From a virus: DNA of 20,038 nucleotides. The notes under the pieces are model-generated. The model searched no databases. It was given only the letters and a program-made list of their open reading frames with translations, and was not told the origin of the DNA. Of this stretch, positions 2,592 through 20,038 are shown one piece after another. The position numbers were made by a program, and so were the translations under genes. Position 1 is the first letter of the stretch, and each line of letters starts with the position of its first letter. The stretch lies in the UHGV virus genome UHGV-1340863. The stretch is one strand, 5' to 3'.

Positions 2592-2944
2592 AACACGATG
2601 ATATTCACCACACCGCTGGCGTTCAGCGCGTAGGCTTCGATATCGTCGGTCGGGTCATACGTGGACTTGTCACGCTTGCTCCACTCCGTGCCGCCGGACT
2701 GCGTGATGTTATTCTCCTCACTGCGGCCCATATCCACCTCAACCGGATCGAAGGCTTCACCGGTCATGGTGTATTTGCCCTTAAGCACGGCAGAAACTGC
2801 CTGCATCTCTTCGACCTGAGCAATGGCCAGCTCTTCGTCACGCATGTTCTGCATGATGATGCGACGGCGGCGGTAAGCCGGGTCCACCAGATTCTGCGGA
2901 TCTTCATCCGGCAGGCGACGCAGGGTCATCTGCGGATTCACTTC
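2592..2944 (-). pseudogene. E: Major capsid protein E, internal fragment (about codons 83-198), separated from its N-terminus by the inserted element
   Basis: Translation (E)VNPQMTLRRLPDEDPQNL...ITQSGGTEWSKRDKSTYDPTDDIEAYALNASGVVNIIV matches lambda gpE. No start codon (the track's M is GTG = Val in context); upstream in frame is element-derived P-K-H then TAA at 2954-2956. Confidence 0.9.
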
Positions 2945-2982
2945 ATGCTTGGGTTACATGAGTCAAATAGAAAAAAGATACT

Positions 2983-3010
2983 TGATTTAACAGAGATTTA
3001 TTTTATAAAT
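2983..3010 (+). promoter_or_regulatory. Candidate sigma70 promoter upstream of the TIR gene (TTGATT-N16-TATAAA)
   Basis: TTGATT at 2983-2988 and TATAAA at 3005-3010 with 16-nt spacing in an AT-rich leader. Pattern match only. Confidence 0.25.
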
Positions 3011-3031
3011 GAGAGGGTGCAGAATTACGTA

Positions 3032-3052
3032 GCAATACATGCTGCAATACAT
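3032..3052 (+). repeat. Direct repeat GCAATACAT x2 (candidate integrase arm-type sites, attL side)
   Basis: gcaatacat at 3032-3040 and 3044-3052; the same GCAATACA motif recurs at the other element end (13525-13561). Confidence 0.5.
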
Positions 3053-3162
3053 GGTTAGGGAAAAGCCTTCTTGGCATCGTACAAAAAACAAACCGAATTT
3101 TTTCTAACACAGCCAAGTAAAGCCTCCTTCACTTAATTAGTTAAATTATAAAGGAATATTCA

Positions 3163-4305
3163 ATGAAAATTTTTCTTGCTCATGCAAAAGAAGATGAAAC
3201 GATAACTGAAGAAATCTATGAAAGGCTAAAAAGTGGAGGATATTCCCCTTGGATGGATGTAAAAGATATACCCGCTGGCGTAAACTGGGATTATGAAATC
3301 CAAAAAAACTTCGCTAATTCAAACTTGATAATCCTTATCCTTAGCAAAGTGAGCACTCAGAAAAATGGTTATATTCGCCGCGAAATAAATGACGCCATTG
3401 ATAAACTAAAGTATTACAAACCAGATGATGTGTTCGTGATACCATTACTTATTGATGATTGCGAAGTACCCGCCTACATATCAAGCAAGCTCCAATTCAT
3501 TGATTTTAAGAGAAATGATGGTTGGGACATTTTATCTAGATCTTTAAGATTAGCAGCATCGCAACAAAAACTTGAAATATCTCAAGGTATCACTTATGGG
3601 CCATTTAACTTTAGCAGCGAGGTTTTCAAGGAAGAATATAACAAGATCCCAGGGCATGAAATTGAAATAGCATATCCAAGAATTGAAAGCCATACATTAC
3701 CGAAATCAGCAAAACTCATTAGTGATTACTTTTCAGGAAAAGCGGCTTTACATATTTTTTCTGAACGCACATCACTATGGCCAGGAACACCATATTGGGA
3801 TGAAGAATATAAACACACTTACACTAGTTCCTATAATGAAAGTTATAACATCTCATACTGTAACGAAAATGTCATGAGCATCCTTCATTCCGTACATTGG
3901 TATGGTGCGGGAGCAGCACACCCTAACAGTCATTTTGAAACTAGTAATTTCGTAATAACCAAGGATGACTACGCATACAAATTTAGTTTATGGGATGTAT
4001 TTACCGAAGGGAAAGAGCAAGAAGCGATTAATAAGATAAAACAAAAAATAATCTCTGAATCAGCTCGTGAATTTTGGGAGAAAACTGGTGAAAAACCAAG
4101 TGAGGACGACATTAGTACGTTTGCAACGGGTATCATGGATAGTAACTTAGACTCGTTCACAATAAATAGTGATGGATTTAGATTCCATTTTGCACCTTAC
4201 GAAATTCATGCATATGCTTTTGGTTCTTGGGAATTCTTTATCTCATTCTTTGAAGTAATAGACTTCCTTAAAGAGGATGGAATTTACTCTCTAATAAGGA
4301 GTTAA
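3163..4305 (+). CDS. TIR-domain protein (N-terminal TIR about 135 aa plus about 245-aa C-terminal domain of unknown function); candidate anti-phage NADase-type defence protein
   Basis: 380-aa ORF with AAGGAA Shine-Dalgarno 7 nt upstream of ATG. The N-terminus MKIFLAHAKEDE...GYSPWMDVKDIPAGVNWDYEIQKNFANSNLIILILSKVSTQKNGYIRREINDAIDK...DDVFVIPLLID has the bacterial TIR pattern, with a candidate catalytic Glu near residue 74 in YIRREI. Strongly AT-rich compared with its neighbours. I cannot assign the C-terminal domain by eye. Confidence 0.75.
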   Translation: MKIFLAHAKEDETITEEIYERLKSGGYSPWMDVKDIPAGVNWDYEIQKNFANSNLIILILSKVSTQKNGYIRREINDAIDKLKYYKPDDVFVIPLLIDDCEVPAYISSKLQFIDFKRNDGWDILSRSLRLAASQQKLEISQGITYGPFNFSSEVFKEEYNKIPGHEIEIAYPRIESHTLPKSAKLISDYFSGKAALHIFSERTSLWPGTPYWDEEYKHTYTSSYNESYNISYCNENVMSILHSVHWYGAGAAHPNSHFETSNFVITKDDYAYKFSLWDVFTEGKEQEAINKIKQKIISESAREFWEKTGEKPSEDDISTFATGIMDSNLDSFTINSDGFRFHFAPYEIHAYAFGSWEFFISFFEVIDFLKEDGIYSLIRS

Positions 4306-4314
4306 CATTTCAAT

Positions 4315-4337
4315 AAGCCTGAAATTTAATCAGGCTT
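4315..4337 (+). terminator. Hairpin downstream of the TIR gene (candidate intrinsic terminator)
   Basis: aagcctga (4315-4322) / tcaggctt (4330-4337) with a 7-nt loop, followed by an A/T-rich tail atatacatttcc; begins 10 nt after the TIR stop codon. Confidence 0.4.
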
Positions 4338-4659
4338 ATATACATTTCCTTATGATTAAATTATTGCTGTTCTTAAGCAAAGATGCAGCCAGAAGTAATT
4401 CCCCCTCAAGCTTGCTTGCACACATAAAGAACTGACACAAAACTCTGCTGTAAAGTTGTCTAGCCACACAGCAAAAAACATATGAAACTTTGTTATTCGC
4501 AAACTGCTTGCTCTATATTCCACCATCAAGGCGCATAAAGCAATTGCAATGGCGCAGAAGTAGGCCATAACTATGAAGTGAAGCTAGCGGCGCGTTATTG
4601 GCCGCTTCTGAATAGTGCCTGATTCAACTCAGGGATAAGATTTTTTCTGGTGATAGACC

Positions 4660-4850
4660 GCGACGGATGGCAACAAAACCAGAGAAAGGAAACGACAGAG
4701 GCCAAAAAGCCTGTTTTTAGCACCTGTCGTTTCCTTTCTTTTTAGGGGGTGTTTTTAATAAAAACATTAAGTTACGGCGAAGAAGAACGGAAACGCCTTA
4801 AACAGGAAAATTTTCACAAATAGCAAAAAACTGCGCGCCTGACGCCCCGT
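4660..4850 (-). other. Second, element-borne lambda-type cos site (cosB-like R/I-site region plus variant cosN-like sequence)
   Basis: 4674-4840 aligns by eye, same orientation, with the helper cosB at 19872-20038, differing at roughly 10 positions. The adjacent cgcgcctgacgccccgtaacg (4829-4849) resembles the lambda cosN region (GTTACG GGGCGGCGACCT CGCGGG, from memory) but is variant. Confidence 0.8.
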
Positions 4851-4903
4851 AACGTTCTGGATCGCCGGAAAGGACCCGCCAGCCAGAGCGGGCCCTAATT
4901 TCA

Positions 4904-5287
4904 TCAACCAATCAGCTTATAGCGACCATCCCGTGCATTGCGGCGTACACGCTCAATCTTGAGGCATAGCGCCGCATCTGGCTTTTTTGGGACAGGTACG
5001 CGGCAATATTCAGAAGCGCGAGGAATATTATTTATCCAGTCGATCACTTCACTTAAATACCAGGCCTTACGCCCTTCCGTAACCTGCACACGCTCCGGGA
5101 ACTCTCCACTAGCCTCAAGGTTTAGCAGTGTACGACGACTCAGGGTTGTAATTTCCATCACCTGATTCATATCAACAAGGCGCTCGCTTAAACACATTTT
5201 GTCAGCGATAGCTTTTAATTCCTCTACAGCTTGATTCGGGTACATCATTTCGGCAATTGGCTTAAGGTCATTGTAATCATTCTGCAT
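4904..5287 (-). CDS. AlpA/excisionase-family wHTH protein, cos-adjacent (function unknown; regulator or packaging-redirection candidate)
   Basis: 127-aa ORF with AAGGGGGA SD. The segment ITTLSRRTLLNLEASGEFPERVQVTEGRKAWYLSEVIDWINN has the AlpA/Xis-type HTH signature; the gene ends 54 nt from the element cos. Confidence 0.6.
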   Translation of the reverse strand: MQNDYNDLKPIAEMMYPNQAVEELKAIADKMCLSERLVDMNQVMEITTLSRRTLLNLEASGEFPERVQVTEGRKAWYLSEVIDWINNIPRASEYCRVPVPKKPDAALCLKIERVRRNARDGRYKLIG

Positions 5288-5298
5288 TGTATCCCCCT

Positions 5299-5640
5299 TT
5301 ACACACGAGCCAGCGGCTGAACAGAAATACCTGAGCCAACAAACGCTGCAACCTTTACTGACAGTTCTTTAACAGACTCAGGCCAGTTCAGAGCATCAAC
5401 ATTTAAGACACCTGTCTTATAGACCTGAGCCTGTGTTTTTTTCGCGGTGTCGATTTGTACAGCGGAAACATAAACCGCTTTACCTACGCTCGAACCATCC
5501 CATACCACCAGTGCACCTGTTGCATCTTCCTGCATCAGTGGCGTAAATGCAGGAATTACCCCTTTATTAGCTGAAAATATCCCCAGCGTAGTCACCAGTG
5601 CTTCAGTGCCAGCCATGAGTTCAGTGTAATGAGTAGCCAT
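5299..5640 (-). CDS. Head decoration protein, lambda gpD-like (element-encoded paralogue)
   Basis: 113 aa; TPLMQEDATGALVVWDGSS...YKTGVLNVDALNWPESVKELSVKVAAFVGSGISV aligns with lambda D ([19 protein letters not shown]...[34 protein letters not shown]). AAGGGGGAG SD; start 10 nt after the E-like gene stop. Confidence 0.8.
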   Translation of the reverse strand: MATHYTELMAGTEALVTTLGIFSANKGVIPAFTPLMQEDATGALVVWDGSSVGKAVYVSAVQIDTAKKTQAQVYKTGVLNVDALNWPESVKELSVKVAAFVGSGISVQPLARV

Positions 5641-5649
5641 TGCTCCCCC

Positions 5650-6690
5650 TTAGCCAATGCGAACGGTAACAAAACGATTGATGCGGGCCGGTATTGGCTG
5701 TGGTGCTGAATGTGTCTGCACATATTCAATAGCCGGATCACCAGGCACAATATAGTTTTTCGGTGCAAGTTCGGCTTTAGTCAGCCCCATTCGGATTAGC
5801 TCCGGATCCTGAATACCGCCATAGGCGACAATCCCCTGAAGAGCCGTATTGCCAAGCACCATCAAATCAGGATCAAGGAAATGTTTTTCTGTTCCGTCCT
5901 CGTCGGTATAACGCCCGCTGTAAACAACAATCGCAACATCGCCCATATACCCTTTAAAACTCACCGAATCACCAAGGTCTTTAAGGGCCGTTTCCAGTTC
6001 GGAATTAGAACCACGACGGGTATCCAGAGCCTCTTTTATCGCTCTGAATGAACGGTATTTCTTCCATACATTACCGCCCATAATGATAATATTAGTGACG
6101 CCCTCACTAAATTCTGCGTAGCTCTCAATATCATCATTTGGATCAAAAGTTTCTTTATCCTTACCTGACCACTCAGCACCGCCAGACTGAGTGATGATAT
6201 TTTGTGGTTTAATATTCCAGTCCAGCTCATAACGTTCAATACCATCGCCCTCAATGATATTTTTCCCCGTTGTGATTGCCTGAACAGCAAGCCATTCAAT
6301 ACGTGCACGAATAGCTTTAGCTTGATTTACAATCGCCTGTTTAACTTTAATATTACGCGCCCCAAAAGCATTGTATTGCTCAGGTGATACACCAGCAGGG
6401 CGCACAGCTAACTTATTTGGATCAATGCTGCTTTTCGGCTTCATATAGCCTGGACGAATTGTTTTTGATTCGTACCCTTCGTCACGTGAAACTTTACTAC
6501 CCACCATAGGAGAACAAAACGCTGCAATTGGGATATTTGGATCGTCGATTGTATCAAGAATAATATCGCGCGATTCAAACATTACCGAGCGAGTAAAAAA
6601 CAAACTGGTAAACAACGCATTTAGTTGTTTTTGTACATCTACAGCATTAACCACCTGTACAAGCTGAGTAGGCGAATATAAATCAACCAT
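5650..6690 (-). CDS. Major capsid protein, lambda gpE-like (element-encoded, diverged paralogue of the interrupted helper E)
   Basis: Aligns with lambda E along its whole length, e.g. NIITQSGGAEWSGKDKETFDPNDDIESYAEF vs NNITQSGGTEWSKRDKSTYDPTDDIEAYALN, and FRAIKEALDTRRGSNSELETALKDLG...GDVAIVVYSG vs FKAVKEKLDTRRGSNSELETAVKDLG...GDVAIVVYSG. Start set at ATG 6688-6690 (MVDLYSPTQL..., SD AGAGG) rather than the ORF-track start at 6864; 346 aa vs 341 for E. Confidence 0.85.
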   Translation of the reverse strand: MVDLYSPTQLVQVVNAVDVQKQLNALFTSLFFTRSVMFESRDIILDTIDDPNIPIAAFCSPMVGSKVSRDEGYESKTIRPGYMKPKSSIDPNKLAVRPAGVSPEQYNAFGARNIKVKQAIVNQAKAIRARIEWLAVQAITTGKNIIEGDGIERYELDWNIKPQNIITQSGGAEWSGKDKETFDPNDDIESYAEFSEGVTNIIIMGGNVWKKYRSFRAIKEALDTRRGSNSELETALKDLGDSVSFKGYMGDVAIVVYSGRYTDEDGTEKHFLDPDLMVLGNTALQGIVAYGGIQDPELIRMGLTKAELAPKNYIVPGDPAIEYVQTHSAPQPIPARINRFVTVRIG

Positions 6691-6864
6691 ACGCATCCTC
6701 TTTGCATTCATTAAAAATAATTGTGGATATATGCTATCACCGATATTTGTCATGCGAATACATGCAACCGAGTGCAATGTTGTATAAAGTTTTGGGGTGA
6801 CAACTTCAGTGCGGAAAATTAGTGTTAATATCTTCACTCCCTTTGGTCGGGATTTATGTAGCAT

Positions 6865-6899
6865 GCCGGAAAATTTATTTTTTCCGGCCTTTTTTTATT
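6865..6899 (+). terminator. Strong intrinsic-terminator-like hairpin, active in plus orientation
   Basis: gccggaaaa (6865-6873) / ttttccggc (6880-6888) stem followed by a run of T residues (6889-6899). On the minus strand the stem is not followed by a U-tract. Confidence 0.5.
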
Positions 6900-6907
6900 G
6901 GCAATAT

Positions 6908-7357
6908 TTAAAACGGGATATCATCTCCCCATTGCTCATTATCTCCCACTGGTGGCTGGCTTCCTTGCTGATCTGCCTGTTGTTTTGCTCTGTTCAGTGC
7001 GTCAGTAGCCTGCCCCTGTTGGCCTTTATTGCCGCCCGGTCGCACCGATCGCGCACTGATTACGCTGTCTGCGATAACCTGCCAGCCCTGCCGCGTTTCG
7101 CCGTTCTGTCCAGTCCACTGGCTCATCTGCATGTTACCCGCCACGCTCAGGAGTTCGCCTTTGTGATGCTTTGCCAGCGCGTCGGCTTGTCTGCCAAACG
7201 CCAGGACAGATAACCACATCGTCGCCTGACCGTCATCCGACTGACTGCAGGGCAGTGATACCGCCATACGCGCCAGCGTCATGGGGGTGCCCTTGCTGGT
7301 CTGTTTTGTCTGCGGGTCGTCCACCAACCGCCCGTAAACTGATATTTGCGCCGTCAT
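6908..7357 (-). CDS. ssb: Single-stranded DNA-binding protein (SSB)
   Basis: 149 aa; N-terminal OB-fold-like region (ISVYGRLVDDPQ..., WTGQNGETRQGWQVIADSV), Gly/Gln-rich linker and the hallmark acidic C-terminal tail ...WGDDIPF. GGAGAG SD; ATGA overlap with the upstream ORF. Confidence 0.8.
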   Translation of the reverse strand: MTAQISVYGRLVDDPQTKQTSKGTPMTLARMAVSLPCSQSDDGQATMWLSVLAFGRQADALAKHHKGELLSVAGNMQMSQWTGQNGETRQGWQVIADSVISARSVRPGGNKGQQGQATDALNRAKQQADQQGSQPPVGDNEQWGDDIPF

Positions 7358-7599
7358 GCTGCCTGCTCTCCGGACTTAATATTGATTGTTGTCACTTCCT
7401 CCGCTTCAGCAATCTCCCGTTCGGTCAGAGTGGCAAAGTTTGCAGCCGCCGTTGTCATGAATGCGCTAATCAGTTCGGGATGTGCTTTCGCGTATCCTTC
7501 CCCGGCGTTGCGGTCGATGATTTTTATCGACACCCTTAACCAGTGTTCCGTCAAATCAAGGGCGTGCGATTGTGATTTTTTTGTGTGCTTCGCTGTCAT
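7354..7599 (-). CDS. Hypothetical protein (81 aa), translationally coupled to ssb
   Basis: ORF between the iteron cluster and ssb; its stop overlaps the ssb start (ATGA). No recognisable motif; weak RBS. Confidence 0.45.
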   Translation of the reverse strand: MTAKHTKKSQSHALDLTEHWLRVSIKIIDRNAGEGYAKAHPELISAFMTTAAANFATLTEREIAEAEEVTTINIKSGEQAA

Positions 7600-7650
7600 A
7601 GGCTTTATCTCACAGCAGTAAATTAAAATTTTTGCGTTTTAACCCTTCAC

Positions 7651-7873
7651 CTGTTCACCTTTTGATATTTTCTCTTTTAATTCATAATGTTAATTGGTGA
7701 ACAGTTTCACAAAAACTATTCACCAACTGTTCACCACTGTTCACCCTTGAAGCTCAATAAACAATCAAAAAGGTGAACAGTGAATAGTTTGGTGAACAGT
7801 TCATAAATAACTGTTCACCCTATAATATACTGATATAAAAGATATTTATGACAGGGTGAACAGTGGTGAACAG
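7651..7873. repeat. Iteron cluster: at least 9 copies of GGTGAACAG/CTGTTCACC in both orientations; candidate satellite origin of replication
   Basis: Copies at 7651-7659, 7696-7704, 7727-7735, 7737-7745, 7772-7780, 7791-7799, 7811-7819, 7855-7863 and 7865-7873, embedded in AT-rich DNA immediately downstream of the replication-protein gene. Confidence 0.8.
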
Positions 7874-7886
7874 TTATTCCATAAGT

Positions 7887-9707
7887 TTAATTTTTGCTAT
7901 CGTCATTAGTGACCGATACACATGATGGCATCCAGTCTTCTGATTCCTCCGTCAGTGTCACGTTTGAACGCAAACCGTGCTTCGTTTTCCGTTTCATATA
8001 CTCCCTGCCATATTCCGCCATTGCCCCCGGCATATCTTTACCGAAGCGCGTCAGTGTTACAGGTTTACCAAACCCATGTGCCCTCATATAAGCCAGATAG
8101 GCATGATAGAGATACCTGCGTGGGCTGAATGGCACAATTTCAGCATTACCCACTAACAGGCCATCACACATTACCGATGCCATGAGATAGCCGCAGAAGT
8201 CCACCAGCGAATCCCCCTCTCGCTTTATCGCCAGTGCTTCTTCAGATTTCTGCTGCTCATATAACAGGCGTCTGGCTTCGTCCTGATCAGCAAACCGTGT
8301 AAGCAGATGGCGAATCACTACCGCCAGCTCACCTTCTATTTTTTCCGCCAGCATCGAATCGCGTTCGTTCTCCGGTACAACTTCCGAAAAATTGAATATC
8401 ACCCGACGACGTGAGATCCCCCCGCTGCGGTCACTGAATGACATGGCGTTATTGTTAACCGCCAGCACTACTGCCGGAATACGCGTTGAATAGGGGGCTT
8501 TGTGTTTCGGGTCAATTGCCACCTTGTCACCGCCTGTAATGGCCTTAATCCCTGCCCCATCACCAGCGTAGCGGGTCATATCCGGCATGATAATCAGCGA
8601 AAAGCCAACCACTAACGCACGTTCCCTTGCATCTTCCAGCGCCTTCATGCTTGCTGATACTGTATTAGCCTTACCCGCCAGCATGGTGCAAATCTCCGCC
8701 ATCACACTTTTACCACTTCCCCCCGGCCCTGTTACCTCAATGAATAACTGCCAGTCGTACCGGTTCGCCAGCACCATGAATAATGCCGCCAGTACGCGAT
8801 CTGCCTTGCGGTCATTCTCAGCCACCGAACGGCGCAACCACTTCCAGAAATTCGGCGCATGTGTTGCCAGCGTTTCCCCCTCTGCTGGTGGGCTGAAAGG
8901 TAATTCACTGGCAATTAACAACCAGTCGTTTTTGTTATGCTCCCGAAAGTTACCAGTTCTGGTATCAAATACCCCGTTACTGAATCCAATCAGGTTACGG
9001 GCTGTATTCCCCATTACAGGCAAACTTAACTTCATGGTATCTACCGCCGATTTAATAGCGTTCTGCGAATAGCTGATCTCCGCATCAATGAAAATCTGCG
9101 CCATAGCACGCTGTAACTCTTTATCCTGAACCGGCTCCCATACAACGCCGTTGTAATGATGAACGGTGTCAGAGTCGGCATTGATTGCCAGTTCGCCGCC
9201 GTAATGTGCAAGGAGAACTTCACCGCGCTGGCTGGCCCCCATCTGATTCAACGCCAAAGATGAAGCACGCTCGTCATTTTTGCGCTCAGCCTTCTTAACT
9301 GGCAGTTCAATCACCAGACTTTCCCCATGCTCCGCTTCAGCTTTTAGGCCGACAAGGCGCGGAGTCCAGTCTTCAGGCTCTCGATCAACAAAGCTACGGT
9401 AACAACGTGCTTCCTTTACGCCTGCAATAGCAAGTAATGTCGCAACCTTCGTCAGACTTTTCTCTGCAATCTTTCCGGCACGATAAACACGCACATAATG
9501 ACGGCCTTCATCGATAATTTGCATATCATCCAGGTTTTCCAGTTGTTCCGTACCCAGAATGACTGGTGGTGTATCATCTGCTGCAATATGCTTACCTGCC
9601 CATTCATTCCATTCTTTTGCATGGCTCCAGGCATCACTGCCAGCAAAAATGATGACTTCCGTCATTTTGTCGCGCGGTTGGTATTTTAAGTTCGGAGCAC
9701 GTTTCAT
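7887..9707 (-). CDS. Replication initiator: D5/P4-alpha-type SF3 helicase-primase (PICI Pri-Rep-like)
   Basis: 606 aa; Walker A motif VTGPGGSGKS with a downstream hydrophobic stretch ending in acidic residues (LIIMPDM); overall resemblance to the C-terminal NTPase of phage/plasmid primases. GGAGGT SD; ATGA overlap with the upstream small ORF; iterons directly downstream. Confidence 0.75.
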   Translation of the reverse strand: MKRAPNLKYQPRDKMTEVIIFAGSDAWSHAKEWNEWAGKHIAADDTPPVILGTEQLENLDDMQIIDEGRHYVRVYRAGKIAEKSLTKVATLLAIAGVKEARCYRSFVDREPEDWTPRLVGLKAEAEHGESLVIELPVKKAERKNDERASSLALNQMGASQRGEVLLAHYGGELAINADSDTVHHYNGVVWEPVQDKELQRAMAQIFIDAEISYSQNAIKSAVDTMKLSLPVMGNTARNLIGFSNGVFDTRTGNFREHNKNDWLLIASELPFSPPAEGETLATHAPNFWKWLRRSVAENDRKADRVLAALFMVLANRYDWQLFIEVTGPGGSGKSVMAEICTMLAGKANTVSASMKALEDARERALVVGFSLIIMPDMTRYAGDGAGIKAITGGDKVAIDPKHKAPYSTRIPAVVLAVNNNAMSFSDRSGGISRRRVIFNFSEVVPENERDSMLAEKIEGELAVVIRHLLTRFADQDEARRLLYEQQKSEEALAIKREGDSLVDFCGYLMASVMCDGLLVGNAEIVPFSPRRYLYHAYLAYMRAHGFGKPVTLTRFGKDMPGAMAEYGREYMKRKTKHGLRSNVTLTEESEDWMPSCVSVTNDDSKN

Positions 9708-9991
9708 TTGTTACCTCCGGCAACTAACATTGCCCGAATTTTACGGATATAGCCTGCGGCACGCCTCTGATTATCTGTCTTGCAATTTTTTACCAGAATG
9801 AAATCTCTTTCGAACTGCTGACGCGGCATAACACATTCAAAATCATAACCATCACGCAAATAAGAGACACGACGATCATCAACCGAAATAATCTTTACCC
9901 GATAGCCATAGCTGTCTTTGAAAATATCCCCAAGGCTGATTTTTGAATGAGTTTGACCGCTGGCAATAAAGCCAGAAAATTTATTTTTCAT
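9704..9991 (-). CDS. Hypothetical protein (95 aa), replication operon
   Basis: ORF in an operon-like array with stop/start overlap to the helicase-primase gene; no recognisable motif. Confidence 0.5.
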   Translation of the reverse strand: MKNKFSGFIASGQTHSKISLGDIFKDSYGYRVKIISVDDRRVSYLRDGYDFECVMPRQQFERDFILVKNCKTDNQRRAAGYIRKIRAMLVAGGNK

Positions 9992-9994
9992 TTT

Positions 9995-10219
9995 TTATTC
10001 TCCGGTATAGCTCTGGTCGTGTATTTTTATAGCTTCATCCAGCTCTTTGATGACAGGATCAAGTAACGTAATTAACGCTCCAGCTAAATTAGCATCCCGT
10101 TCATCGTGTTCCGCATTTGTTGTCCCATCAAGCCAGGTTGATAAGATTTCTCGCATATTTTTGCCACAAACGAGCGCGTTTTCAGCATGTGTCAGCACTT
10201 TAAAATAAAGATCATTCAT
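9995..10219 (-). CDS. Hypothetical protein (74 aa), replication operon
   Basis: Strong AGGAGGTG SD upstream of ATG at 10217-10219; overlaps the end of the upstream ORF by 8 nt. Confidence 0.5.
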   Translation of the reverse strand: MNDLYFKVLTHAENALVCGKNMREILSTWLDGTTNAEHDERDANLAGALITLLDPVIKELDEAIKIHDQSYTGE

Positions 10220-10577
10220 GGCACACCTCCTGACGAATACGGGCGGCGAATATCATCACGTAGCCAGTTGGGAATTGCTGGCGGGCTTCCTGTTCGCTGG
10301 CGGCCTCGATGTGTATTACGCGTGGTTGTGCGGTGCTCAGGGCGATAAAACGCCAGATGAAATTGTTTTCGCATTTCTGAATAAACAGCGTGTTTTCTTC
10401 ACGCCCTTTCCAGAAAGCCGCAGTATAGCCCATCTCCTTAACCATCTTGCGGGCATCAACCAGCGTGTCAGCGGCAACATGTACCGTAGTTGCTCCATCT
10501 GCCATGCGGTCGTGGTGTAGTGCCAGAAAGGTGTATATAAATTTAGGGTGAGTTTGGGTATGCTGTGTTCCAGCCAT
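10212..10577 (-). CDS. Hypothetical protein (121 aa), first gene of the leftward replication operon
   Basis: C-terminal 121 codons of the 304-aa track ORF, starting at ATG 10575-10577 (MAGTQHTQTH...) with a GAGGT SD. The long N-terminal extension in the track overlaps the operator region and the divergent gene and is rejected. Confidence 0.5.
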   Translation of the reverse strand: MAGTQHTQTHPKFIYTFLALHHDRMADGATTVHVAADTLVDARKMVKEMGYTAAFWKGREENTLFIQKCENNFIWRFIALSTAQPRVIHIEAASEQEARQQFPTGYVMIFAARIRQEVCHE

Positions 10578-10664
10578 AATCGTTACCTCGTTTAACGGTT
10601 TGGTTAGAAGCCCGGTTAGTGTTCGCGCACTGCCGGGTTTCGTCGTTTTTATGAATCGATCATT

Positions 10665-10766
10665 GTGAGATACATAGCGACCATGATGTGAGATATACAT
10701 TATATTGTGGTGATATACATTGCAAGTGTTTTTATATCTCACTTTTGTGTATAGTGATATACACAT
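10665..10766. promoter_or_regulatory. Operator-like repeat cluster (GTGAGATA(TA)CAT x5, one inverted) in a divergent promoter region
   Basis: gtgagatacat 10665-10675, gtgagatatacat 10688-10700, gtgatatacat 10710-10720, inverted tatatctcac 10733-10742, gtgatatacacat 10754-10766; lies between the divergent genes starting at 10577 (-) and 10786 (+). Confidence 0.6.
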
Positions 10767-10785
10767 AACAAATTGGTGATTAACT

Positions 10786-11088
10786 ATGTCTGTATACAAA
10801 AATGCAAAATCGCAAATGACAACGATCAGGGTTCCCCACGATGTTATGGAGGGCATGGAATCCGTAAAACTGGACGGCGAAAGCAACGCCGGATTCATAG
10901 TAACCGCCATGCGCGGTGAGATCGCCCGCCGCCAGGCAGAAGGAAGCGGAGAAAATCCCCTCGTGTCTTCACTGGATGCCTTAGCTAAGGTCGAACAAAT
11001 CGGCATCAAGGCAGCGGAGGAAATCGGGCAACTCGTAGCCGTCGCTCGTGAAGAACTCCAGCGGCGTAAAGCCAAAGAATCTGAATAA
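10786..11088 (+). CDS. Putative small DNA-binding regulator (possible ribbon-helix-helix fold), divergent from the replication operon
   Basis: 100-aa ORF with GGTGA SD; N-terminal TTIRVPHDVMEGMESV resembles an RHH beta-strand/helix start. Position next to the operator repeats fits a repressor or activator role. Fold assignment is a guess. Confidence 0.45.
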   Translation: MSVYKNAKSQMTTIRVPHDVMEGMESVKLDGESNAGFIVTAMRGEIARRQAEGSGENPLVSSLDALAKVEQIGIKAAEEIGQLVAVAREELQRRKAKESE

Positions 11089-11097
11089 TTACTATCA

Positions 11098-11124
11098 GCG
11101 CCGTGATGTGAGTAACTACGGCGC
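11098..11124 (+). terminator. Hairpin downstream of the regulator gene
   Basis: gcgccgt (11098-11104) / acggcgc (11118-11124) stem with 13-nt loop, 10 nt after the stop codon; the downstream tail is only moderately T-rich. Confidence 0.35.
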
Positions 11125-11438
11125 ATTGCTATGTAAATACTGGCAATAAACAGAAAAGGTAGTTCTACTCCGAATAATTTTATCTGACACTACTCCTGAA
11201 CTAACATGCGCTTATCTTACAGGATATAAATATAGATCCATAAAATCACGATTAAATAAAGTCGCTCCAAACATAAACCACACCCAACGCTTAACAAGAT
11301 AGCAACAAACAGATAAATAACTTGCAGAAATATTTATCGCAAGGATTATCATTATTAATTACAAATCACTTTACCAAGTCATTCCCCTCTCTTATCATAA
11401 AGAGAAAGTAATAAATAAGTTAAGGGAGTTAGAATACT

Positions 11439-11975
11439 ATGAATCTAAAAAAAATAGCCACAAACATAAAAAACAAGATAATAGAAACATTCAATAAACT
11501 TATATTAGAGGCATCTAAAACCCCCACACAAGATGAAATTAAAATACTTGAGAGAAGAAGTAAAAAGTTTAATTACTCCTTTTTCTCATACGCAGTCACA
11601 GGAGCCATAATGGTTTTTTGCTCTCAACCATTAATAAAATACGCAAACCCAATGCTTATTTTATTGAGTGGTCTGTTACTGTCTATCATCATTATCCTTC
11701 TCAGAATGATTTATATTTCACAAGCGAATGCATCATGGACAACCAAAAAACGTTCACATGTACTAGTTCATTTTCTTTCTGCATGTTTCATAGCGTCAAC
11801 ATTGACGTTGTTATATCAGGCTTACGATAATAACATCACACACAAATTGTACTGTAAAAATATACAACAACTTATTGAAAAAAGGATAGAAACAGAAAAA
11901 AATATCAGCATATTCAGTGGGATGCAATGCACCCCGGCATATGATTACTCTTTATTTGGATTTAATCTCTTATAA
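11439..11975 (+). CDS. AT-rich multi-pass membrane protein (178 aa), function unknown; cargo gene candidate
   Basis: Three hydrophobic helices (AVTGAIMVFCSQPLI, MLILLSGLLLSIIIILLRMIYI, VLVHFLSACFIASTLTLLYQAY); GGGAG SD upstream; strongly AT-rich island (about 11100-12040) flanked by GC-richer element genes. Confidence 0.6.
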   Translation: MNLKKIATNIKNKIIETFNKLILEASKTPTQDEIKILERRSKKFNYSFFSYAVTGAIMVFCSQPLIKYANPMLILLSGLLLSIIIILLRMIYISQANASWTTKKRSHVLVHFLSACFIASTLTLLYQAYDNNITHKLYCKNIQQLIEKRIETEKNISIFSGMQCTPAYDYSLFGFNLL

Positions 11976-12044
11976 AGAATGTTATTACTGATTTGAGTGC
12001 AAATTCTCAAATCAGTAATTCATAATATTTTATTCTGAGATAAT

Positions 12045-12272
12045 TTAAACTACCCACTCACCTCGAATCCATGCCTGCACTTCTGAAAGACGATATGCAA
12101 CAGCAGTGGAGCCAATCTTGATCCGCTTAGGAAATTTCCCTTCCTTCTCCAGCTTCCAGCGTGTGCTGTTCGCAAGAGTGGTTAGCTCCCGACATTCTTT
12201 CTCACGGATCATACGATCGATGTTAGGAATGTACTCCAGACCCTTTTTATCAACAATCGCCATTTTTTTCAT
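12045..12272 (-). CDS. AlpA-family HTH protein (excisionase / transcriptional activator candidate)
   Basis: 75 aa; LTTLANSTRWKLEKEGKFPKRIKIGSTAVAYRLSEVQAWIRGE matches the AlpA/Xis HTH pattern (..EGKFPKP.K.G.R...W...E.Q.WI); directly downstream of int. Confidence 0.75.
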   Translation of the reverse strand: MKKMAIVDKKGLEYIPNIDRMIREKECRELTTLANSTRWKLEKEGKFPKRIKIGSTAVAYRLSEVQAWIRGEWVV

Positions 12273-12273
12273 G

Positions 12274-13509
12274 TTAACCAGCCTTTTGTTTGAGGATTAT
12301 CACTTTTGAATCAGCACCTGCGATGCTATTGAGATATGTAGTCCAGAGTTCCAGAGCATCCAGTTTTTTAGCCATAAACTTACTCCGGTTGTAAACACCT
12401 GCCACGCCAGGTAGCGCATGGCCTAACAGTTGTTCTACTACATAAAATTCAACACCGAGATCACTTAGATGAGTAGATAGCGTTCTTCTAAGGTCGTGTA
12501 GTGACCATTGTTTTTCATGGCCCAAACGTTTACCGATTTTCCCCCCAATCTTGCTTACGCTTTCTCTAATTCGCAGACTTCCCAGCACATAACCAGTATG
12601 TTTTGTCTCTTCGTGAACATCCGTTACCCACTGTCGTAGAATTTCAGGTACTGGTCTGACGATTTCAACACCAGTTTTTGAGTGATCTTTTGGTACAGTC
12701 CAAACCCAACTTTCGAGATCCCATTCGCTCCATTCTGATAATCGGGCTTCACTCATTCGACATCCAAATACTGTACAAAGTACAAACATTTTTCGCGTGT
12801 ATTCAGACATTAGTTTTAAATCAGGCTCGACAAAAATTGCTTTCCAGAGCTGGCCCAGCTCGGCTTCATCCAGAACCCGATCCCGCTTACCTGCAATCTG
12901 CCCCACATCACTCATGCGCAAATCCTTTAAAGCATCACACGTCGCGTACTGGCGTACCCGACAAAAACGAAGAGCTAATTTAGTGTCAGAAAAAACATAC
13001 GCCGCCATAACTGGTGCATTACGTTTAATTCGGTCAAAACAGTCCAGCCATTCATATAGGTGAGTGTCATTTACAGGCAAATGACCGATATAGGGAAAAA
13101 TATGCTTTCGAAATCTGCCAAGCGTTACAGCATGAGTTTTACGACGCACCTTACAGTAATTTTCATACCAGTAATTTAGTGCATCCTCCACTGTGACCGG
13201 CTTTAAGCGTTCTTCAGCCTGAATCTTAATCTGGATACGCGGATCACGTTTGTCAGCCAACCAACCACGGCACTCGTCGCGCTTTTCCCTTGCCTGTTTG
13301 AGTGACATATCAGGATATTTACCCAACGTTAGCCAGACCGGAGCAGCCCGGCCACCTGCTAACCTGTAGAAGAAAACAAAGCTCACAGCCCCCTTGGTAC
13401 TCACACGAATAGAAAGCCCCTTTCCATCAGCAATGGTGATCTGCTTTTCTCTGGGTTTCCCCAGATATCCTTTAAGTGCTTTGTCGCTCAGTTTGTTCTC
13501 GCCAGCCAT
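12274..13509 (-). CDS. int: Tyrosine site-specific integrase (P4-type, N-terminal arm-binding domain)
   Basis: 411 aa from ATG 13507-13509 (MAGENKLSDK...); C-terminal catalytic region with HDLRRT and LLGH motifs plus a downstream Tyr; terminal gene of the element, beside the right junction. Confidence 0.88.
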   Translation of the reverse strand: MAGENKLSDKALKGYLGKPREKQITIADGKGLSIRVSTKGAVSFVFFYRLAGGRAAPVWLTLGKYPDMSLKQAREKRDECRGWLADKRDPRIQIKIQAEERLKPVTVEDALNYWYENYCKVRRKTHAVTLGRFRKHIFPYIGHLPVNDTHLYEWLDCFDRIKRNAPVMAAYVFSDTKLALRFCRVRQYATCDALKDLRMSDVGQIAGKRDRVLDEAELGQLWKAIFVEPDLKLMSEYTRKMFVLCTVFGCRMSEARLSEWSEWDLESWVWTVPKDHSKTGVEIVRPVPEILRQWVTDVHEETKHTGYVLGSLRIRESVSKIGGKIGKRLGHEKQWSLHDLRRTLSTHLSDLGVEFYVVEQLLGHALPGVAGVYNRSKFMAKKLDALELWTTYLNSIAGADSKVIILKQKAG

Positions 13510-13524
13510 TTTAAGCCCCAAAAA

Positions 13525-13561
13525 GCAATACAAGCTGCAATACAGAGATGATTGCAACACA
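13525..13561 (+). repeat. Direct repeats GCAATACA x2 plus GCAACACA (candidate integrase arm-type sites, attR side / int leader)
   Basis: gcaataca at 13525-13532 and 13537-13544, gcaacaca at 13554-13561; same motif and orientation as 3032-3052 at the opposite end. Confidence 0.5.
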
Positions 13562-13641
13562 CAGATAACGAGGAAAATCCAGTGAAAGCGCCAGATAGAC
13601 TTATTCTTTATTATCAAAAGATTAAGTGTAAAAACCAGCAA

Positions 13642-13917
13642 CTACACGAAAGCCTCAGAAAGCCATGCTAAGTGCTTCGGCTTGACATATCCCGGCGTAA
13701 ATTCAGAGGTGGAGCCGCCACGGGAACGGATAACCTCACCGGAAACAATCGGCGAAACGTACAGCGCCATGTTTACCAGTCCCGGAATTTGTGAGAGATA
13801 GACTTTCTCCGTGGTGAAGGGATAGCTCTCACGGAAAAAGAGACGCAGAAACAGCGGATCAAACTTAAATTTCTGCTCATTTGCCGCCAGCAGCTGGGCG
13901 GTTGTGTACATCGACAT
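13642..13917 (-). pseudogene. E: Major capsid protein E, N-terminal 82 codons fused to 9 element-derived codons and a stop
   Basis: MSMYTTAQLLAANEQKFKFDPLFLRLFFRESYPFTTEKVYLSQIPGLVNMALYVSPIVSGEVIRSRGGSTSEFTPGYVKPKH matches lambda E 1-82, then LAWLSEAFV-stop encoded by element sequence (13642-13671). Confidence 0.9.
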
Positions 13918-13972
13918 AAAAAAATCCCGTAAAAAAAGCCGCACAGGCGGCCTTTAGTGATGAAGGGTAAAG

Positions 13973-14305
13973 TTAAACGATGCTGATTGCCGTTCCGGCA
14001 AACGCGGTCCGTTTTTTCGTCTCGTCGCTGGCAGCCTCCGGCCAGAGCACATCCTCATAACGGAACGTGCCGGACTTGTAGAACGTCAGCGTGGTGCTGG
14101 TCTGGTCAGCAGCAACCGCAAGAATGCCAACGGCAGCACCGTCGGTGGTGCCATCCCACGCAACCAGCTTACGGCTGGAGGTGTCCAGCATCAGCGGGGT
14201 CATTGCAGGCGCTTTCGCACTCAATCCGCCGGGCGCGGTTGCGGTATGAGCCGGGTCACTGTTGCCCAGCGGCTGGTAATGGGTAAAGGTTTCTTTGCTC
14301 GTCAT
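13973..14305 (-). CDS. D: Head decoration protein D
   Basis: [12 protein letters not shown]...[11 protein letters not shown], 110 aa, matches lambda gpD; start taken at the internal ATG that reproduces the lambda N-terminus. Confidence 0.92.
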
Positions 14306-19861: not shown

Positions 19862-20038
19862 TGTTCATTCCACGGACAAAAACAGAGAAAGGAAACGACA
19901 GAGGCCAAAAAGCCCGTTTTCAGCACCTGTCGTTTCCTTTCTTTTCAGGGAGTGTTTTAAATAAAAACATTAAGTTACGGCGAAGAAGAACGGAAACGCC
20001 TTAAACCGGAAAATTTTCATAAATAGCGAAAACCCGCG
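19862..20038 (-). other. Helper cosB region (Nu1-binding R sites and IHF site); window ends at the edge of cosN
   Basis: Reverse complement reads CGCGGGTTTTCGCTATTTATGAAAATTTTCCGGTTTAAGGCGTTTCCGTTCTTCTTCG...GAAAGGAAACGACAGG..., matching the left end of the lambda genome just after the 12-nt cohesive end GGGCGGCGACCT (from memory). Confidence 0.85.

Follow-up and report, generated by a model that had tools for sequence, protein, structure and literature searches.

The window, by which we mean the whole analysed stretch of 20,038 nucleotides (UHGV virus genome UHGV-1340863), carries, on the minus strand, head and tail genes of a lambda-type helper prophage, with Nu1, A, W, B, C and D on one side of an insert and FI/FII, Z, U and V on the other. 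The insert lies within the cognate of lambda E, at about codon 80 of the Phage_cap_E profile and in the same orientation, and its int, primase and capsid genes are on the same strand as E and thus co-oriented with the helper late gene. The genes of the insert are arranged in the four zones of a Gram-negative PICI, running from int/alpA through a Bro/regulatory zone and a primase/SSB/ori zone to a late zone:

[quoted passage not shown]
12274..13509, minus strand: integrase (Int), 411 aa, P4-type tyrosine recombinase (Pfam Arm-DNA-bind_3 3.7e-19, Phage_integrase 1e-16; phrog_1)
12045..12272, minus strand: HTH/AlpA-like protein, 75 aa, directly after int (RefSeq 'helix-turn-helix transcriptional regulator'), a candidate excisionase/regulator
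9995-11975, minus strand: Icd-like gene, YlcI and small ORFs (regulatory zone)
7887-9991, minus strand: DUF4222 protein and primase (primase zone)
7887..9707, minus strand: D5-type primase/helicase, with ori-like iterons just downstream (7673-7888)
6908-7357, minus strand: SSB (primase/SSB/ori zone)
5650..6690, minus strand: satellite E-like major capsid protein, 346 aa, 42% identical to helper E by blastp (Pfam Phage_cap_E 2.4e-41)
5299..5640, minus strand: satellite gpD-like head decoration protein, 113 aa, 37% identical to helper D (Pfam HDPD 4.5e-15)
4904-5287, minus strand: second AlpA (late zone)
4673..4835, no strand assigned: cos-like segment; 93% identity with helper DNA at 19876-20038, upstream of Nu1
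3163-4305, plus strand: TIR-DUF3298 cargo gene, on the strand opposite to all core genes

The domain architecture of Int fits the P4 type. Several further observations were made in the body of the insert. The segments 4673-4835 and 19876-20038 form a 163-nt direct repeat of 93% identity which includes a 26-nt hairpin-forming inverted repeat and whose match ends at the end of the window; it is probably a cos region that would enable the satellite to use the helper terminase. Between 7673 and 7888, iterons of the GGTGAACAG type and inverted repeats follow immediately 3' of the primase gene, and this cluster is likely the replication origin of the satellite. The reading frame of the satellite capsid gene is open for 404 codons (5650-6864, minus strand), and RefSeq places the start at 6690 to give a protein of 346 aa (MVDLYS...); the capsid profile does not match the 58-codon upstream extension. 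When 2900-13950 was scanned with Rfam at E <= 0.1, no immunity RNA of the C4/isrK type, a kind mentioned in PMC10111431, was detected. The same region holds a sub-threshold match to symR, the SymR antitoxin RNA, at 10572-10644 on the plus strand (35 bits, where the gathering score is 61; E = 0.001), which sits in the regulatory zone near the Icd-like gene. Assignment of the TIR cargo gene to a known defence system was rejected, as the PADLOC matches to several defence families covered only their TIR part. In sister copies from other E. coli the cargo at this end differs and consists of DUF2971 together with a terS pseudogene, or of an Abi protein, which suggests a variable slot for defence genes beside the distal attachment arm.

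At the integrase-proximal end of the insert, the lambda-type E gene starts with an ATG at 13917 on the minus strand and runs through 82 normal codons (...PGYVKPKH) before it enters foreign DNA. The features of the two junctions are:

13672-13917, minus strand: E codons 1-82, by translation
13642..13917, minus strand: truncated E ORF, made up of E 1-82 (13672-13917), LAWLSEAFV (13645-13671) and a TAG stop (13642-13644)
13673..13677, no strand assigned: int-side crossover core, TGCTT on the plus strand and AAGCA on the gene strand; homology to intact E begins exactly at 13673
2946..2950, no strand assigned: distal crossover core, TGCTT on the plus strand
2592..2950, minus strand: start of the E C-terminal fragment from codon 81/82 (KHEVNPQMTL...), which runs on under a run of N at 2492-2591

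The pentamer AAGCA (gene strand) is the sole stretch common to both junctions. The position of the junction is fixed independently by comparison with intact genes, because the uninterrupted E of more than 3,000 complete E. coli genomes aligns to the window from 13673 rightwards only. When a 351-bp query spanning the int-side junction was searched against 5,426 complete E. coli genomes, a full-length alignment was obtained in 173; in thousands of the remaining genomes the query aligned only from 13673, and an uninterrupted capsid gene is annotated there. Recombining the two cores in silico in the complete-genome copy of E. coli TUM14697, with the insert and one core deleted, restored an intact E of 341 aa. 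The AAGCA block together with the restored 341-aa E makes this an attL/attR identity block that would permit precise excision. An element protein fused to the C-terminal fragment of E at the distal junction was considered and ruled out, because an in-frame TAA lies two codons upstream of the core.

A sequence-only reading of this locus had described a junction that splits E at the integrase-proximal end of an integrated element, and this is borne out by the core copies, the alignments of intact E and the positions of the ORFs. All positions it gave were found exactly or within a few bases. It had also placed the start of the integrase about 160 bp from the junction, and the ATG at 13509 indeed lies 163 nt from the first element-specific base at 13672. 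Its name for the junction has to be changed. 'Right junction' is appropriate in the plus-strand coordinates of the window but not otherwise, since the int-adjacent end is the one named attL; the label attR is incorrect because the int-adjacent junction (B-O-P') is attL both by lambda convention and in PMC10111431.

The element is already known. Tommasini, Mageeney & Williams (NAR Genom Bioinform 2023; PMC10111431) described Eco567.11capE in E. coli NRG857c, an 11-kb PICI-like satellite which resides in the E-type capsid gene of an icd prophage and has its own capsid gene. After mitomycin C treatment of Eco567 the composite was precisely excised and then replicated, after which the satellite was excised, and the precise excision of this type element was measured by qPCR and deep sequencing (PMC10111431). 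The same work reported the motif tgTGTATTGCantgTGTATTGCa, which flanks the attP centre in two co-oriented copies, 81 +/- 2 bp upstream and 132 +/- 2 bp downstream, and for 11capE a 258-bp, 90% identical match to the cos region, to which the cos-like repeat of the window corresponds (PMC10111431). On its element side, attL of the window is practically identical to the sequence that the supplement of that paper gives for the type element Eco567.11. Supplementary File 1 of PMC10111431 lists 18 members with the identity block 'aagca', and the examples among them measure 10,727 bp and reside in icd composites of 59-60 kb. All relatives with 83-100% Int identity are located in E. We are close to certain that the feature is the int-proximal attachment junction (attL, B-O-P') of a 10,727-bp HE-PICI of the E:Phage_cap_E:80 group and 11capE type. 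As the best explanation of the locus as a whole, the junction of an 11capE-type HE-PICI after E codon 82 together with the mechanism outlined below is highly probable. Both the element and the repeat motif with its spacing were known before, and the window adds one copy of a catalogued genotype.

The copy in the window agrees with Eco567.11capE in its target site within E, in orientation and gene order, and in having a capsid gene of its own; both also carry a cos-like segment and, with matching distances, the doubled TGTATTGC motif, and in strain TUM14697 the helper is likewise a lambdoid prophage in icd (PMC10111431). The type element measures 11,077 bp and has the 10-bp block aacccaagca, whereas the copy in the window measures 10,727 bp and has a 5-bp block and TIR-DUF3298 cargo. 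Nothing of substance separates the two.

The length of the identity block differs between copies. The core in the window is flanked by the helper-type AGCCG on the int side and by the element-type AACCC on the far side. In other copies the identity block measures 10 bp; it reads AGCCGAAGCA in SCU-102, and IMG/VR copies and the type element have AACCCAAGCA. From the different flanks on the two sides it follows that strand exchange takes place at or within AAGCA, or that mismatch in the overlap is tolerated. The 5-bp block of the window implies integration into a helper E allele that differed from the attP of the element beside the core. Narrowing the crossover to AAGCA by means of hybrid junctions goes beyond the main text of PMC10111431, yet it can be read from its supplement.

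One technical feature affects coordinates at the distal end. Exactly 100 N occupy 2492-2591 of the window, and this run is a gap or mask of arbitrary length, because about 516 bp occupy the spot in an otherwise near-identical complete genome (L001). In that genome the roughly 516 bp span the last part of the C-terminal fragment of E, the spacer between E and FI, and the beginning of FI. Coordinates lower than those of the N run are offset from the true sequence. An ORF of 267 aa at 2138-2941 is an artefact of reading across the run.

The leader of int contains repeats, and the sequence-only reading had counted three of them. Perfect copies of GCAATACA are found on the plus strand at 13525-13532 and 13537-13544, and a copy of the form GCAACACA at 13554-13561. 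The published motif tgTGTATTGCantgTGTATTGCa is the reverse complement of the GCAATACA repeats. All three copies are thus present, but only two of them constitute the conserved doubled motif and the third is degenerate. The equivalent of the int-side doubled copy, which the sequence-only reading had not connected with it, lies at the far end of the element:

13525..13544, minus strand: int-proximal (P' arm) doubled motif TGTATTGCagctTGTATTGC, starting 131 nt from the core centre and ending 15 nt before the int ATG
3032..3051, minus strand: distal (P arm) doubled motif TGTATTGCagcaTGTATTGC, in the orientation of the proximal copy and ending 84 nt before the core centre at 2948
13554..13561, minus strand: third repeat, reading TGTGTTGC on the gene strand, its start 17 nt upstream of that of the doubled motif

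Because a paired doubled copy is found at the far end, the repeats are putative sites of the attachment arms and more than repeats of a leader. Within each doubled motif, one half-site starts 12 nt after the other. On the gene strand the int-side copy runs from 13544 to 13525 and starts 131 nt from the core centre at 13675 (published value 132 +/- 2). The copy on the far side, from 3051 to 3032, ends 84 nt before the core centre at 2948, or 83 nt to the flanking base (published value 81 +/- 2); the centre was taken as the middle of AAGCA, and the small offset from the published spacing depends on how the centre is defined. The window thus holds two co-oriented copies at the published spacing. 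The octamer GCAAYACA occurs seven times in the window where 1.65 occurrences are expected, a count reached in 1 of 100 shuffles, and five of the seven fall into two clusters of the same orientation at the ends of the insert, the one in the int leader and the other at 3032-3051. Chance repeats were ruled out by this excess, by the two end clusters and by conservation across genera.

Relatives were collected in two ways, by integrase similarity (Kosakonia, Cedecea and Kluyvera loci) and by searching IMG/VR with the motif pattern (120 loci). For most of the IMG/VR loci, which were retrieved by the motif itself, its presence is circular and its position relative to int is independent information; the three loci retrieved by integrase are independent of the motif query. 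The two full loci among the latter (Kosakonia and Cedecea) are likewise integrated in E, with each of the doubled copies where it is expected. The motif-fetched loci yielded 31 distinct arms with the doubled motif 12-65 nt upstream of the int start, and the integrases of those arms that belong to other site groups are only 49-57% identical to the Int of the window. In one of these other site groups from IMG/VR (L013, L032, L045 and L046) a third perfect TGTATTGC lies about 42 nt downstream of the doubled motif, before int, and the int start is 50-65 nt from the doubled motif, compared with 12-25 nt elsewhere. A copy of TGCATTGC at -41 was seen in the group typified by L039. In some motif-fetched contigs, giant-virus bins among them, several doubled motifs overlap or stand in tandem, and no integrase homologue is nearby (L084 1474-1517, L124 1573-1640 and L057 7252-7529); these may be tandem octamer arrays, or chance or unrelated repeats.

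The third repeat behaves differently from the doubled motif. E-site relatives whose Int is 88-100% identical keep it as TGYGTTGC, and Cedecea (L004) has lost it. A role as a universal fifth site was ruled out, as the offset of -17 was found in the E-site group only; elsewhere, a site group has either no extra copy or just one, at +42 (perfect), -41 or -24. The three repeats of the leader are therefore best described, from these comparisons, as two conserved sites and one lineage-specific degenerate site. The specificity of the third repeat for the E-site group is a small point beyond the main text of PMC10111431.

We asked what might bind the doubled motif. PMC10111431 proposes the arm domains of Int, AlpA or some further protein as the binder. 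The four half-sites, possibly with the degenerate fifth, are putative arm-type sites for the N-terminal arm-binding domain of the satellite Int, and such sites would assemble the attP or attL-attR intasome at a fixed distance from the core. We regard the assignment to Int as somewhat probable. Among ten diverged HE-PICI integrases, the arm domain is on average 65% identical, compared with 46% for the core-binding and catalytic part (permutation p < 1e-4). This difference would fit a conserved arm motif combined with changing core targets. That the arm domain is the most conserved part of Int across site groups goes slightly beyond the main text of PMC10111431. However, the AlpA-like protein encoded next to int is also well conserved across diverged HE-PICIs, so conservation does not discriminate between Int and AlpA.

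Directionality factors typically bind direct repeats that are about one helix turn apart. The half-sites of the doubled TGTATTGC, at 12 nt start-to-start, show the spacing typical of such recombination directionality factors, and could be sites for an AlpA-type excisionase/regulator or another DNA-bending accessory protein instead of the arm domain of Int. A small conserved HTH/AlpA-like gene follows int in every diverged HE-PICI examined, and AlpA is named as an alternative in PMC10111431. We nevertheless hold this explanation to be rather unlikely, since the motif occurs on both arms at fixed distances as arm-type Int sites do, whereas excisionase sites are usually confined to one arm, and since Int possesses a dedicated arm-binding domain which is its most conserved part across site groups. 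A more radical alternative is that the element is a fixed, immobile remnant and that the features of its junctions are relics without function. Many helpers of HE-PICIs look truncated, the type strain gave no virions (PMC10111431), and some sister copies carry IS insertions and a terS pseudogene. Yet in the window the core genes are all intact ORFs, both cores and all four half-sites are perfect, and the near-identical type element excises precisely upon induction (PMC10111431). Moreover, the presence of the element in different helper alleles with different identity blocks points to repeated integration events. We thus consider a functionless remnant improbable. With regard to transfer, particles of HE-PICIs were looked for by the authors of PMC10111431 and none were detected.

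Between the core and the repeats, the P' arm holds one candidate promoter for int:

13603..13632, minus strand: weak sigma-70-like site, candidate int promoter in the P' arm (TTTACA, 18-nt spacer, AAGAAT; 9 of 12 matches)

A strong int promoter was not found in the leader; the one weak consensus match does not exceed the count expected from shuffled sequence. A search for terminator-like sites on the minus strand of 12900-14000, which on the gene strand covers the stretch between D and int, found none. By analogy with other elements, Int and/or AlpA, when bound to the P' copy 15 nt before the int ATG, would probably damp int expression. For KplE1, negative autoregulation was shown for the IntS gene, whose promoter overlaps attL, and P4 Int is cited likewise (PMC2951348). 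The present element resembles KplE1 IntS/TorI and P4 Int/Vis in that int reads inward from the attachment junction and sites for recombination proteins, putative ones here, lie in its leader or promoter (PMC2951348); it differs in that read-through of helper late transcription is an additional proposed input specific to it. After induction, helper late transcription would cross the E stump into int and alpA, and such read-through is expected because no terminator-like site lies between D and int. Read-through would trigger a late excision of the satellite, and only then would E be repaired. This cis-regulatory model, from late read-through through excision to repair of E, was already proposed in PMC10111431.

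Before excision, the junction leaves a truncated E gene. Translation of the minus strand at 13642-13917 gives MSMYTT...GYVKPKH followed by LAWLSEAFV, that is, 82 + 9 = 91 aa, with the end ...GYVKPKHLAWLSEAFV. The earlier statement that E continues for nine element-encoded codons before a stop, yielding 91 residues, was hence accurate. RefSeq labels this ORF 'major capsid protein, missing C-terminus'. Production of the 91-aa peptide is plausible, and the ORF is probably translated in the late phase before excision because it keeps the native E start and is located in the late operon.

Could the stump be of use to the satellite? It might act in a dominant-negative manner on helper capsid assembly, or, before excision, bias assembly towards the E-like and D-like proteins of the satellite. 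The stump retains the native start, its gene follows directly after D in the late operon, the satellite has its own capsid and decoration genes, and relatives in E. coli, Kosakonia and Cedecea, hence in three genera, share the position of the tail stop. However, most of the changes in the tail among relatives are non-synonymous (V to T, V to L, W to S, L to I and F to I), and in one variant (L036) a TAG ends the tail after two codons, so that no sign of selection on the nine-codon tail was found among relatives. The conserved DNA adjoins the crossover core and would be constrained anyway by core-type Int binding. In addition, knockout of a PICI capsid gene was tolerated according to literature cited by PMC10111431. 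A functional stump is accordingly very unlikely in our view, and we infer that the 91-aa peptide is an incidental by-product. The specific idea that stump made from helper late transcripts before excision might cap or poison helper procapsids, or steer assembly towards the satellite E-like/D-like shell, is hardly to be expected. If such interference did occur, the position of integration within E would have been selected for the fragment produced.

In E. coli TUM14697 (NZ_CP128888.1) a sequence 100% identical to window 2900-13950 is present. The helper prophage there is bounded by icd and an icd fragment, and the composite measures about 59 kb. Outside the window, the helper of TUM14697 (L126, L127) encodes iss (serum survival), a large inverse autotransporter gene and, near the tail-fibre end, sitABCD. 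Through these helper genes the composite also carries virulence-associated cargo. In the phage genome collection no copy of the satellite was found; the best match was a 15% primase match, in addition to the E flanks.

Several known systems resemble this arrangement. The attP of lambda has arm-type sites P1 and P2 on one arm and P'1-P'3 on the other, and serves an arm-binding tyrosine integrase. The attachment region described here likewise has direct repeats on both arms at fixed distances from a short core, and its Int has a separate N-terminal arm domain. Its P arm has two putative sites and its P' arm two with a degenerate third, a layout that would recall P1, P2 / P'1-P'3. It differs from lambda in that the motif sequence is unrelated and in that PMC10111431 saw no site of the IHF type. 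With Gram-negative PICIs such as EcCICFT073 the element shares the int-alpA-primase-ori-late layout, the frequent presence of a capsid gene, a lambdoid helper and a packaging signal of the cos type (PMC10111431). In contrast, those PICIs reside in chromosomal genes, interact with their helper in trans only and are without the doubled TGTATTGC motif (PMC10111431).

The closest parallel to the split gene itself is provided by the elements of 'regulated gene integrity', such as skin in sigK and the comK prophage, in which a gene is likewise split, attP brings no replacement copy and precise excision repairs the gene (PMC10111431). Here, in contrast, the split gene belongs to another mobile element, the helper phage, and the switch thus serves the satellite. 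[quoted passage not shown]
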